DNA from: a virus
Taxonomy: Duplodnaviria; Heunggongvirae; Uroviricota; Caudoviricetes
Direction: 5' to 3' (one strand)
DNA: 27,306 bases
IMG/VR virus record: IMGVR_UViG_3300000301_000054
In this document: piece by piece, positions 16,715 through 20,300 of the stretch
Numbering within the stretch: the stretch's first letter is position 1
Layout: each line of letters starts with the position of its first letter
The notes under the pieces: generated by a model
Seen by the model: only the letters and a program-made list of their open reading frames with translations
The model's database searches: none
What the model was told of the DNA's origin: nothing
Made by a program: the position numbers and the translations under genes

Positions 16715-17308
16715 TTACCACTTGTTGTAAATAAAACCAATGTCTTTCTTGTGAGGCGTATCGGCTGCGGAAAAAGCTGCGATCTTCGCGAGTCGATCAC
16801 ATATTTCATTTTCACGATGCCCGGCGTGACCTTTAACCCACTTCCAGCGAACATTATGTCGACTTGCGGCCTCATCCAGACGTTTCCACAGATCAACATT
16901 CTTTACCGGTTTTTTATCAGAAGTCATCCATCCATTACGTTTCCACCATTTCATCCACTGTGTCATGCCGTTTTTCAGATACTGGCTATCAGAGTACAAA
17001 ATAACGTTGCATGGATATTTCAAACGCTCCAGCCCGATAAGTGCGCCCATCATCTCCATGCGGTTATTGGTGGTGCTATGAAAACCATCTGAGAACTCGC
17101 GTTCCTCACCACGATACTGGAGAACGATACCGTAACCACCCGGGCCACCCGGATTTTTAAGGCAAGAGCCATCACTGAAGATTTTCACGGTTTTAAGCTG
17201 GGGATTGAACTCTACGACAGGCGTTGTGGGATTGGTGCGGGGAGAATTTTTGTTTTTGGCTTTTTTGCGAGTTTTTGCTTGCGATCGGGCTGGTGTCTTC
17301 GTCGTCAT
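16715..17308 (-). CDS. rnhA: RnhA-type ribonuclease H with a basic N-terminal extension
   Basis: [65 protein letters not shown] align along E. coli RNase HI; ATG at 17308 with AGGAG 6 nt upstream preferred over the ORF-track start at 17359. Confidence 0.8.
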
Positions 17309-17966
17309 ATAAACTCCTGAATCAAGCGCCGCGCCGATTTTTTCCTCGCGCGTGCGCACACGCGTGCGTGTTAATAATTATTAAAATAAACAAATTACTT
17401 CCCAGAACAGGTTTTTATAAACCTGAACTGAACGAACGAAGTGAGTGAAGTTCACCTCGAACGAAGTGAGAGGTTGTCTTTTCAGGTAATACTCTCCCAG
17501 GGAGGTGAGTACAAAATTTCCTCACCAACCTGGTCGTTTCATAACCTGAAAAGTTATGACCTAAGTCTACTGCCAGCTTAGGCTTGGGAAGTTATGGATG
17601 ACAGCACCCCAGAACCGAGATCTTCCCACACTTTATGAAGGGGAGTACTGGATTCAACCTCTCGAAACACTCCAGACTCGACAATCATAAAGTGACCCTT
17701 CTNNNNNNNNNNNNNNNNNNNNNNNNNNNNNNNNNNNNNNNNNNNNNNNNNNNNNNNNNNNNNNNNNNNNNNNNNNNNNNNNNNNNNTTTGGTTCCCCCT
17801 TCCCCAACCCCTAAACGGTGCCGGTTCTACGCTGGTAGTGAGCTTTTTTAAACCTGACGCCAGTGACGCTTACCCCCACCCATCAGGTCGAGTCTCCAGT
17901 CTACGACTGGAAACTATCAGATCTTAGCACTTACAATTCACTTTATAAATAGTTTGTACTTATCTA

Positions 17967-18221
17967 TCATTGTGATTGATTATTTTCTCGACCATGTAGT
18001 TGAACATTCAAGGCAAACACCTCATTGATCAACTCACCTAAAAGCTGTTCAACAAGTTCGCGATGCTCGCCAAGATGCAAGCACTTAATTGCCCACTCGT
18101 ACAAGTTGAAAGCCTGCTCACGATCTTTCATCATTTCACGAGCCTGGGCCAGAAAATCGCTCTCTACGAGCGCAACGACATTAGTCGGGTATGACATGTT
18201 GGTTTCCTTAAAGTGGTTCAT
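17967..18221 (-). CDS. Hypothetical small phage protein (84 aa)
   Basis: ORF only. Confidence 0.4.
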   Translation of the reverse strand: MNHFKETNMSYPTNVVALVESDFLAQAREMMKDREQAFNLYEWAIKCLHLGEHRELVEQLLGELINEVFALNVQLHGRENNQSQ

Positions 18222-18418: not shown

Positions 18419-19131
18419 TCACATTCGCAGGATCATANNNNNNNNNNNNNNNNNNNNNNNNNNNNNNNNNNNNNNNNNNNNNNNNNNNNNNNNNNNNNNN
18501 NNNNNNNNNNNNNNNNNNNNNNNNNNNNNNNNNNNNNNNNNNNNNNNNNNNNNNNNNNNNNNNNNNNNNNNNNNNNNNNNNNNNNNNNNNNNNNNNNNGA
18601 GCATACTGCCACCGGGGTTGATGTTTACTTCTACCTGACCCAAATTGACGTCAGGCTCGACAAACGCTACGCGGCCACCAGACAGAATAATCGTCTCATT
18701 CGCACACTCTGTTGCACGCTCATACCACTTTGTATCGAGGGATTGAGGAATTAGCATCACTGTTGTAACTCCGCGAGCCTNNNNNNNNNNNNNNNNNNNN
18801 NNNNNNNNNNNNNNNNNNNNNNNNNNNNNNNNNNNNNNNNNNNNNNNNNNNNNNNNNNNNNNNNNNNNNNATCAATCCAGGGGGAGATTTTGGAGTAGGG
18901 TGGATTGAGGAAGGCAATTGTACCTGGCTGTCCCCATTCAGATTTCAAAGCATCACGCTCAACGCCTATGAAATTAGGCAGCTTCGCATTGTCCTTGTTG
19001 CAGGCAACGTCAACATCAAATGTCACTCCAAGATAACGTTGAATGGCAGAAAACAGCCAGTCAGGTGTTCTCCAGAGGTCACGAAGAGAGTTGTCGCGCT
19101 TTCGCTGTTTGATTTTTTCGGCTGCAATCAT
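18419..19131 (-). CDS. Phage Dam-family N6-adenine DNA methyltransferase (interrupted by N runs 18438..18598 and 18781..18870)
   Basis: WRTPDWLF, DVACNKDNAK and NPPYS match the phage Dam (N-6-adenine methyltransferase) family as recalled. Confidence 0.6.
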
Positions 19132-19314: not shown

Positions 19315-20300
19315 TCATCCAATAGTGTACTCCGCTACAAACTTCTTAACGATCGGTGATTCTTCGTTCAATGTTAGATTTCCACCGTCTCTAACGGCAA
19401 CTCCTGTCGCTGGAAATACAGCCATCATTTGCCCAGCCTGAGTTGACGCAGTGTTAAGCGGATACGGTTTTTCTGGATTGCTCATTAAAGCAATCTTAAT
19501 ACTATTACTTGTAGCCTTCTTTTCTGTGAGAAGGTGTCTCATGGAAATTACCGTGTAAACACTAATGTCTGGACCTCCGCTAAACCAATTAAGAAGGTTT
19601 AATATCTTATCCTTTGCTTTGACAGGCGCGTTTTCGTAAGCGTCTAAGAAAATATCTGTTTCTAAGCCTGCTTTATTGAAAAACGAATCATCTTTATCAC
19701 TTAAAGTAAAACGAGGACCTCTTGCAGTACGCGCTTTTTTATTTGTGTTGCTATCATTTGACTGTTGAACTTTTAATTCATCATTAACATCAACACACTC
19801 TTCAACCTCAATCAATCCCAATTGTTCTGGCTCGTTTTCGGCAGATTCAACACTTTCAGCGTTAATTACGTTTATAGGCTCATGCGCTAACTCCAACTCA
19901 TTTAAAGCAGAGCTGAAATCACNNNNNNNNNNNNNNNNNNNNNNNNNNNNNNNNNNNNNNNNNNNNNNNNNNNNNNNNNNNNNNNNNNNNNNNNNNNNNN
20001 NNNNNNNNNNNTGCTTTTTCTTCATTGAACAGTTCTTCGGCAACATCATCAGAACTCATGGCTACGCCAGCATCGAGGCCGAGCAGCAGATCGTCAATAT
20101 CATCAGTATTTTCAACCTGTGCGGCTTTTTTTACTGGTTCATCAAGTGATTGCAACATGGCTGTCAGCTCGTCCAGATCATCATTTGTCATTACATTTNN
20201 NNNNNNNNNNNNNNNNNNNNNNNNNNNNNNNNNNNNNNNNNNNNNNNNNNNNNNNNNNNNNNNNNNNNNNNNNNNNNNNNNNNNNNTCAACCGAACTCAT
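19315..20300 (-). CDS. Hypothetical highly acidic protein (interrupted by N runs 19923..20011 and 20199..20286)
   Basis: ATG at 20300 with AGGAGA SD; acidic segments on both sides of the gaps. Confidence 0.4.

Follow-up and report, generated by a model that had tools for sequence, protein, structure and literature searches.

A gene-free spacer in an SSU5-like phage-plasmid

The window analyzed here, the whole of a 27,306-nucleotide (nt) stretch of Caudoviricetes DNA (IMG/VR record IMGVR_UViG_3300000301_000054), comes from an SSU5-like phage-plasmid near-identical to plasmid pLF82 of Escherichia coli LF82, also recorded as Escherichia phage Cyrano, an element with a genome of 108 kb. Between the genes for the small protein gp80 and for an RNase HI lies a long gene-free space, to which a first-pass annotation of the letters had drawn attention as a candidate origin or structured RNA. 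The space is real and the sequence features listed for it are present, with their coordinates slightly off; it does not begin at 17360 but runs from 17309 to 17966, the RNase HI start being the ATG at 17306-17308 (as in the Cyrano annotation, with the Shine-Dalgarno sequence CAGGAG ahead of it) rather than the GTG at 17359. From a comparison of about 140 related loci, we conclude that this spacer is the predicted gene for a real, new, large, structured and pseudoknotted noncoding RNA (ncRNA) of about 460 nt, encoded on the minus strand.

Relative to the Cyrano, SSU5 and Klebsiella records, the window is the reverse complement, and all genes around the spacer lie on its minus strand. The 701 bases around the spacer match Cyrano at 100% identity outside a run of N; their identity to Salmonella phage SSU5 and Klebsiella phage-plasmids is 88-97%. 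There are 17 N runs in the window (e.g., 750-956, 17703-17787, 18438-18598, and 20199-20286), which are scaffold gaps and not true to length: for the runs that can be anchored on both sides, the true gaps measure 0-127 nt against Cyrano. Hence, open reading frames (ORFs) and distances measured across them are inflated. The masked part of the spacer is one such run, and its 85 N stand for only about 10 nt; corrected through the Cyrano record, the real length of the spacer is 583 nt. The two features that fix the frame of reference are as follows.

17394..17892, minus strand: conserved RNA core, 422 nt in reality and 499 window positions owing to the N run
17703..17787, no strand: run of 85 N, about 10 nt in Cyrano, GTGGGCAGAG-like on the RNA strand and forming the 3' arm of helix H3

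Conservation and distribution of the spacer

When Cyrano is compared in 100-nt windows with four divergent relatives, the flanking genes show 60-80% DNA identity against 85-100% for window positions of about 17400-17880. The fourfold-degenerate sites of the RNase H and gp80 genes are saturated (0.34-0.60 identity), and the 422-nt core, at 0.90-0.99, is more conserved than most second codon positions of these same genes. Across the genomes of Cyrano and SSU5, 150-nt windows have a median identity of 0.79; of all blocks that reach at least 95%, the one in the spacer (record 78551-79010) is both the longest and the best conserved. The core is under extreme purifying selection, and the single most conserved sequence of SSU5-type phage-plasmids is an unannotated RNA of about 460 nt, not a protein gene.

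A search of PLSDB recovers the locus in 687 plasmids, whose hosts include Klebsiella, Escherichia, Enterobacter, Salmonella, Citrobacter, and Cronobacter, and among 5426 complete E. coli genomes 232 (4%) have it; neither set carries any RefSeq annotation under the RNA. Blastn matches in the E. coli genomes are confined to phage-plasmids except for two chromosomal places, and none is partial, every matching record covering at least 80% of the query. Exact-pattern scans recovered genome contigs of 3 species and 74 viral contigs, all at least 88% identical to the Cyrano spacer, and divergent homologues were reached only by way of the neighboring gp80 protein family. In these, spacer identity is 69% (L170, L172, and L174), 82% (L173), and 88% (L179), so that the RNA family is a narrow one, with all homologues at least 69% identical. 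One locus from a Logan assembly (SRR8137545, L175) was excluded, as every C in it reads T and the bisulfite-converted reads mimic a diverged homologue. A Buttiauxella gaviniae contig (L087 4831-5163) retains only the 3' 333 nt of the RNA, 97.6% identical, with the breakpoint inside the RNA; it stands directly behind a SbcD-like ORF and is followed by unrelated chromosomal-looking genes, and this copy is a degraded remnant.

Clinical E. coli, Klebsiella, Enterobacter, and Salmonella frequently harbor the phage-plasmids concerned, which carry resistance and anti-defense genes. For these elements the RNA block is a sensitive marker, and it is accessible in genetically tractable hosts (E. coli LF82 with Cyrano and Salmonella with SSU5).

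Secondary structure and pseudoknot

The helices of the core and the strands of a pseudoknot are set out below.

17851-17889, minus strand: H2, a 5' hairpin domain
17837-17842, minus strand: 5' arm of H3, the 3' arm of which is inside the N run
17804-17824, minus strand: H4, enclosed by H3
17685-17694 with 17629-17638, minus strand: H8, covarying at 7 of 10 pairs
17671-17679 with 17643-17652, minus strand: H9, rebuilt from unrelated sequences between lineages
17622-17628 with 17585-17591, minus strand: H11, covarying at 3 pairs
17596-17609, minus strand: H12, from the RNAalifold consensus
17559-17583, minus strand: H13, covarying at 5 pairs
17540-17553 with 17478-17491, minus strand: H14, with a C-G pair deleted on both sides in L173
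17497-17533, minus strand: H15, rebuilt from unrelated sequences between lineages
17433-17470, minus strand: H16 (CGAGGUGA / UCACUUCG), consisting of two 13-nt repeats (CGAACGAAGTGAG on the plus strand) and the spacer between them
17408-17425, minus strand: H17, from per-lineage folding
17655..17663, minus strand: pseudoknot 5' strand GAGAGGUUG, in the apical loop of H9
17468..17476, minus strand: pseudoknot 3' strand CAACCUCUC, complementary over 9 nt to GAGAGGUUG and about 180 nt downstream of it
17456-17467, minus strand: invariant single-stranded ACUUCGUUCGAG, next after the pseudoknot 3' strand

An alignment of 49 distinct close relatives (A1), evaluated with RNAalifold and pair counts, yields 128 predicted pairs with 99.6% of cells paired. 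Compensatory changes are seen at 8 pairs, and 66 cells are changed on both sides, a value reached by none of 500 shuffles. Because half of the helices show too little variation among these relatives for a test, divergent homologues were sought, and a second alignment (A2) was made of 15 sequences that include homologues 69-82% identical to the Cyrano spacer. It supports an 84-pair structure with 98.4% of cells paired, in which 27 of the 84 pairs have changed on both sides; shuffles give 7.2 +/- 2.0 such pairs (0/500 reach 27) and slid controls 1-5. The covariation score is likewise 0.198, against no more than 0.063 with the partners slid by 1-3 columns, these controls lying 3-5 times lower.

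Helices that show no variation among the close relatives find their confirmation in the divergent ones. Between lineages, H11 passes from UGGGAAG/CUUCCCA to AGGAAGG/CCUUCCU and H3 from CUCACU/AGUGGG to CCUGUU/AGCAGG, H4 is capped by a GAAA tetraloop in L170 and by UUCG in L174, and H4, H9, and H15, along with the hairpin H0 ahead of the core (see below), are rebuilt with unrelated sequences. Per-lineage folds agree on H9 and on H14/H15, and the long hairpin H14-H15 belongs to the minimum-energy fold of every lineage. That fold, together with the two-sided deletion of a C-G pair in L173, rules out a local hairpin CAUAACUU/AGGUUAUG that we considered as an alternative to H14. For H14, H16, and H17, where MAFFT misaligns indels, the assignment comes from per-lineage folding and not from column-wise covariation.

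The apical loop of H9 is joined to the downstream strand by a pseudoknot that is retained everywhere, with 97.8% of cells pairing, and that shows a compensatory change in L173, where GAGAGUUUG occurs together with AAACUCUC and a G-C pair has become U-A. (A pairing-breaking design variant of GAGAGGUUG, not a natural sequence, would be GAGACCUUG.) Besides the paired elements, several unpaired nucleotides are invariant, namely, UUCUGGG (twice), CUGGC (twice), ACCAGCG, GAUCU, and ACUUCGUUCGAG, and a GAUC-centered palindrome sits in an invariant internal loop.

Both strands fold far better than expected by chance, with a z of about -3.6. The consensus fold is -143 kcal/mol on the minus strand against -115 on the plus strand, and the minus-strand structure includes 727 G-U cells, each of which would turn into an A-C mismatch if the plus strand were read instead. 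This asymmetry, the promoter described below, and the tetraloop swaps indicate a minus-strand RNA and not duplex or cruciform DNA. The structured-RNA half of the first-pass annotation is thereby strongly supported, by a conserved promoter, covariation in most helices, the pseudoknot, and the strand asymmetry. Several of the complementarities it had picked out (CTTTTCAGGTAAT/ATAACCTGAAAAG, GGTGAG/CTCACC, and CAGGTTT..AAACCTG) are genuine helices of the conserved RNA. The palindromes GTGAAGTTCAC and CTCCCAGGGAG exist as it described them, but with 5-bp arms around a single base they can form no hairpin and are by-products of other helices.

Promoter and transcript ends

Flanking the core are the elements from which we predict where the transcript would begin and end.

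17921..17949, minus strand: sigma-70 promoter of the RNA, with the -35 element TTTATA at 17944-17949, a 17-nt spacer, and the extended -10 element TGcTAAGAT at 17921-17929
17892..17914, minus strand: H0, the 5'-terminal hairpin (GUUUCCAGUC-gua-GACUGGAGAC), with at least 7 unrelated sequences across lineages
17371..17408, minus strand: RNA 3' end region, with a second copy of GUUCUGGG (17398-17408) followed by a U-rich tract (17371-17394)
17326..17370, minus strand: GC-rich block of alternating purines and pyrimidines, folding into a hairpin with a loop of A5-A9 and directly preceding the ribosome-binding site of RNase H

Among the 49 distinct upstream variants of the 140 loci, every one has TAnnnT ending 26-29 nt before the core, despite diverged surroundings; 40 of them have the TGn of an extended -10, and a TT[TC]A.. 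hexamer lies 16-17 nt farther up. A promoter scan independently picks the same site in SSU5 and in a Klebsiella-type element. This conservation and the compensatory pairs in excess of controls are the generic hallmarks of a structured ncRNA, and the RNA is probably transcribed from this promoter of its own, with a predicted start at about 17914-17915. Directly after it, each lineage has its own version of H0, in every case a stable hairpin (-4.5 to -18 kcal/mol against shuffle means of -2 to -7) that ends immediately before a conserved CUCG, as would be expected of a 5'-terminal stabilizing stem-loop.

At the other end, the second GUUCUGGG copy can close a small CCYR-UUC-UGGG hairpin, and the motif is invariant in 15/15 lineages of A2; the U-rich tract that follows is the probable 3' end of the RNA. 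In the divergent clade of L170 and L174, the scan calls this end terminator-like (ACCCATTCTGGGT plus a T-rich stretch), and the gene after the RNA has its own promoter overlapping a 12-bp palindrome. The GC-rich block beyond the tract is conserved in the folded lineages, with a poly-A loop that varies from A5 to A9 even among close relatives, is a mere remnant in the L170/L174 clade, and reads as a terminator-like site on the plus strand in SSU5. It may be a weak or bidirectional terminator or attenuator before rnhA, and its membership in the RNA is uncertain.

Three observations concern Dam sites around the promoter. The sequence AGATCT (with the Dam GATC) at 17919-17924 overlaps the -10 element in E. 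coli-type elements, while Salmonella-type elements have a GATC within the promoter spacer. A second AGAUCU, at 17617-17622, lies in an invariant unpaired stretch of the RNA. Further, a Dam-family methylase gene is found two genes upstream.

Coding capacity and known RNA families

Across lineages, there is no ORF on either strand with a constant start, frame, and length; those of 14-20 codons that fall entirely within near-invariant sequence were set aside as uninformative. The spacer is thus noncoding, and the absence of a conserved small ORF also eliminates a type I toxin mRNA (hok/sok-like) or a small-protein gene. Two existing annotations are corrected by this result. CYRAN_81, a 44-amino-acid (aa) ORF annotated in Cyrano (L001 6279-6413; window about 17578-17712 plus N), has a frame disrupted by indels of 1 and 2 nt, and among relatives its length varies between 17 and 75 aa. 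In SSU5_090, the annotated RNase H start (record 79147) adds about 57 N-terminal codons that reach into the GC block and the 3' end of the RNA. Both CYRAN_81 and the SSU5_090 start are probably misannotations lying on the RNA.

A covariance-model scan, proposed in the first-pass annotation, matched no family: the window has no match at gathering score to any of the 4227 models of Rfam 15 (including riboswitches, T-box, ribozymes, RNase P, tmRNA, 6S, CsrB, group I/II introns, GOLLD, ROOL, and C4). With the unmasked Cyrano region and E values up to 10, only chance-level matches far below gathering score appear, and the divergent homologues have none. ARAGORN finds no tRNA or tmRNA. A full-text search of the literature on SSU5, pHCM2, pLF82, and phage-plasmids yielded no description of an RNA or an origin at the locus.

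Possible functions of the RNA

Several lines of reasoning are suggested by these features. The best explanation in our view, put forward tentatively and as something close to an even call, is an autonomous ncRNA gene whose stable product works in trans. According to this proposal, host RNA polymerase would start at the conserved sigma-70 promoter, in the direction of the flanking genes, and the transcript would open with the protective hairpin H0. The following 420 nt or so fold compactly, through at least ten helices, into two 5' hairpin domains (H2, and H3 around H4), the long hairpin H8-H9, a three-way region of H11, H12, and H13, and the second long hairpin H14-H15, with the H9 apical loop pairing to the single-stranded stretch 180 nt downstream to give a 9-bp pseudoknot. 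A small UUC-loop hairpin and the U-rich tract would end the transcript. Released as a separate RNA, it would act in trans, and the invariant unpaired nucleotides might contact a highly conserved protein or nucleic acid of host or phage, a mode of action also proposed for further large "ornate" RNAs from mobile elements.

The principal competitor, which we regard as somewhat unlikely, is a cis-acting leader of an rnhA-headed early or accessory operon that would control read-through, either as a factor-independent processive antiterminator like HK022 put or as a regulated attenuator. In the main lineages, the promoter of the RNA is the nearest one upstream of rnhA and about 20 co-oriented genes, with no promoter-like site in the approximately 110 nt before rnhA, and the U-rich tract and the GC-rich hairpin with its U-rich tail after the core resemble weak terminators of the kind that such a leader would override. 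Exchanged cargo genes, a Tad2-like anti-defense gene among them, make up the mosaic operon downstream, which would profit from terminator-insensitive transcription. The RNA also recalls HK022 put and EAR in its position directly after an early host-polymerase promoter and before a long operon, with terminator-like elements following, and contact with the very conserved host polymerase would fit its conservation and explain it across host genera. Against this, the RNA is 4-6 times larger than put or EAR, multidomain, and pseudoknotted, with a core of 420 nt as compared with 65-120 nt for known antiterminator RNAs. In the L170/L174 clade it ends terminator-like and the next gene has its own promoter and operator, and the genes that follow the RNA in L089 and L179 run on the opposite strand. 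Finally, the one alternative pairing that could be tested as a terminator/antiterminator switch, in which CUUCCCA would pair with the 3' copy of the duplicated UGGGAAG, is rejected by covariation, as 3 pairs of H11 covary and the 3' copy becomes GGGUAU with no compensating change. The persistence of the RNA where downstream genes are convergent or separately promoted, its terminator-like end in the divergent clade, and the refutation of that switch are the reasons for which we prefer a trans-acting RNA to a cis leader, a preference that is modest.

An improbable alternative is that a lytic origin uses the transcript as its primer or R-loop RNA, in the manner of ColE1 RNA II, T4 oriF/oriG, or the mitochondrial LSP-CSB type; the transcript would hybridize near the 3' AT-rich tract, be processed by RNase H, and prime the leading strand for the phage replisome. 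The order of promoter, long structured RNA with a G-rich 5' half, and AT-rich tract of 25-35 bp is suggestive, as are the GC skew in the first 200 nt of the RNA (+0.31 to +0.35) and the RNase HI gene directly downstream in most lineages. The element encodes T4-like UvsW, UvsY, a gp32-like single-stranded-DNA-binding protein, UvsX/RecA, and gp46/47-like SbcCD, with a helicase, primase, and Pol III alpha of its own, and no lytic initiator was identified among its genes; in T4, UvsW unwinds R-loops. Of the T4-type origin layout, the promoter and the UvsW, UvsY, and gp32-like genes are present, and the AT-rich tract is found 450 nt downstream of the start rather than immediately after it. The likeness to ColE1 RNA II, a structured RNA of about 0.5 kb made by host polymerase in a plasmid replicon, with a G-rich segment and here an adjacent RNase H gene in most lineages, breaks down in several respects. 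The RNase H adjacency is not conserved, being lost in several lineages and in the whole divergent clade. No antisense promoter of the RNA I kind was found, the plus strand of three lineages having no promoter-like site that reads into the 5' 200 nt. The neighbor gp80 has no significant PDB match and nothing Rop-like, so that the triad of RNA II, Rop, and RNase H was rejected, and the element has a RepA/iteron replicon elsewhere and no Rfam similarity. A G-quadruplex was also discarded, the G4-like run GGGGTTGGGGAAGGGGG being broken in E. coli-type and divergent relatives. A primer would moreover leave the near-invariance of 420 nt and the pseudoknot unexplained, and it gains nothing from the cumulative GC skew, which rises monotonically with gene orientation without an inflection at the spacer and is uninformative as an origin test.

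The other proposal of the first-pass annotation, an iteron-type origin or protein-binding site at the DNA level, is largely refuted already, and we give it very little credence. The 13-bp direct repeat CGAACGAAGTGAG does occur twice, at 17433-17445 and 17458-17470 instead of at 17442 and 17457, and both copies are perfect and invariant within the main lineages, with an AT-rich tract close by. Nevertheless, there are only two copies in the window, 25 bp apart and not helically phased, and none of at least 12 nt elsewhere in the 108-kb genome. At least two matches with up to 2 mismatches arise in 13/100 shuffles, and therefore the repeat alone is not significant. The copies pair as the two sides of H16 inside the RNA, and the second is gone in L170, L173, and L174, where another small hairpin, GAGG-GAAA-CCUC, takes its place. 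The G-U strand asymmetry and tetraloop swaps would be senseless for duplex DNA, and the RepA initiator with its own iteron-like repeats is about 17 kb away. Those repeats (GGTCTCTTTG GTTCTCTTTG; Cyrano record 61900-61960, outside the window) lie upstream of repA, are conserved in SSU5, and probably constitute the plasmid origin; a 9-mer (GAACCAAAG on the repA strand) is common to them and the RNA.

Equally remote is the idea that the spacer has no function of its own, its uniformity stemming from recombination among phage-plasmids, or that it encodes the small protein annotated as CYRAN_81. Recombination is evident: the Cyrano core (L001 6085-6530 = window 17384-17904) is recombinant relative to L010 and L046, with both breakpoints inside the RNA. 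It has 14 differences from other E. coli-type cores with 99-100% identical flanks and only 5 from Salmonella/Enterobacter-type cores with flanks saturated at synonymous sites. Moreover, contigs from independent metagenome and Logan assemblies (L164-L169 and L173) end inside the core, several at the same base; the RNA block explains these breaks, most likely through branching of the assembly graph at an identical segment common to co-occurring phage-plasmid lineages, and their reading as transcript ends was accordingly rejected. Recombination cannot, on the other hand, produce compensatory pair changes, indel-tolerant loops beside invariant stems, or a conserved promoter, and the broken frame and variable length of CYRAN_81 speak against a protein.

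Some of the evidence weighs against an autonomous trans-acting RNA. The mosaic Cyrano core implies that interlineage recombination contributes part of the sequence uniformity. A canonical intrinsic terminator after the core is not called in the lineage of the window, in which the U run begins 7 nt past the stem, so that the 3' end is a deduced one. Since the main lineages also have no promoter-like site in the interval before rnhA, read-through into rnhA is possible, and the RNA may be nothing more than the 5' portion of an mRNA of the rnhA operon. The transcript ends and the stability of the RNA are themselves predictions. A complementarity search of the 108-kb genome found no partner, trans target, or second copy, with no complementarity of at least 14 nt anywhere, and the complementary 9-mers that Cyrano and SSU5 have in common carry no information, lying as they do in coding sequence or sequence upstream of repA that is conserved anyway.

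Comparison with other RNAs of mobile elements

Among known RNAs, GOLLD, ROOL, OLE, raiA, and HEARO offer the nearest parallels, being alike in a length of several hundred nucleotides, many helices with pseudoknots, and many invariant unpaired nucleotides. Temperate phage genomes carry GOLLD and ROOL, and such ornate families were found by comparative genomics before any function was known. The present RNA differs from them in having no match in Rfam 15, in its occurrence in phage-plasmids of Enterobacteriaceae, and in its fold; its sequence conservation is much higher, and it is not situated beside tRNA genes. A second comparison is with the immunity RNAs of P1/P7 (c4), P4 (CI), and N15 (CA), with which it shares an early-region location in a phage-plasmid, short repeated motifs in one transcript, and, in SSU5, an antirepressor gene nearby (three genes downstream). 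These immunity RNAs, excised by RNase P, have a length of 70-80 nt and act through base pairing with target repeats close by. In the present case there is no Rfam C4 match, no complementary target, and, by eye, no tRNA-like stem with CCA.

Large bacterial RNAs this structured and conserved have repeatedly proved to be ribozymes, riboswitch-like sensors, or ribonucleoprotein cores. It is a real possibility, advanced here with reserve, that the spacer RNA is the first representative of a new class of large pseudoknotted RNAs, specific to and indispensable for SSU5-type phage-plasmids, and that it serves as a ribozyme or ribonucleoprotein core engaging host machinery that does not vary (the polymerase, the ribosome, or an RNA-processing enzyme, for instance). 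If true, this would account for an RNA that evolves more slowly than the second codon positions of its neighbors.

Neighboring genes

The genes on either side of the RNA are the following.

17967..18197, minus strand: gp80 gene (CYRAN_80, 76 aa, phrog_5343), the upstream neighbor, found upstream of the RNA in every examined lineage with a complete copy
16715..17308, minus strand: RNase HI gene, 197 aa, the downstream neighbor, outside the RNA (Pfam RNase_H, E = 1e-45)

The model of gp80 consists of three helices (predicted local distance difference test score of 80), and its fold has no significant match in the PDB (none with E below 6). Downstream, RNase HI is the rule in most lineages, but unrelated genes replace it in several while the RNA stays, which weakens the case for an origin that the first-pass annotation drew from the neighboring replication and nuclease genes. 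In L075-L077 (500-2500), a two-gene cassette with ORFs of 222 and 315 aa replaces the RNase HI N-terminus; in L089 (5150-6770) and L179 (2395-3231), the next genes are on the opposite strand; and in L170 (3329-4416), an unrelated 200-aa ORF is followed by a Tad2-like anti-Thoeris gene. The RNA is intact in all of these, and it is also kept in L174, of the L170/L174 clade, where RNase HI is again replaced. The cassettes of this slot include two opposite-strand ORFs, one of them phrog_21495, and a UvrD-like helicase. The slot immediately after the RNA is a hot spot for cargo, and the presence of the RNA is independent of the gene that follows it.

In two further loci (L176 and L178, 1726-2440), a syntenic spacer of 710 nt lies between a gp80 that is 70% identical and two RNase H-like genes. 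This spacer has no sequence similarity to the RNA described here, no Rfam match, and no occurrence in PLSDB, but its sense strand folds much more stably than shuffled sequence, with a z of -5.7 against -2.1 for the antisense strand. It may represent an unrelated RNA in the same slot, which would make gp80 followed by a well-folding structured RNA a conserved functional module.

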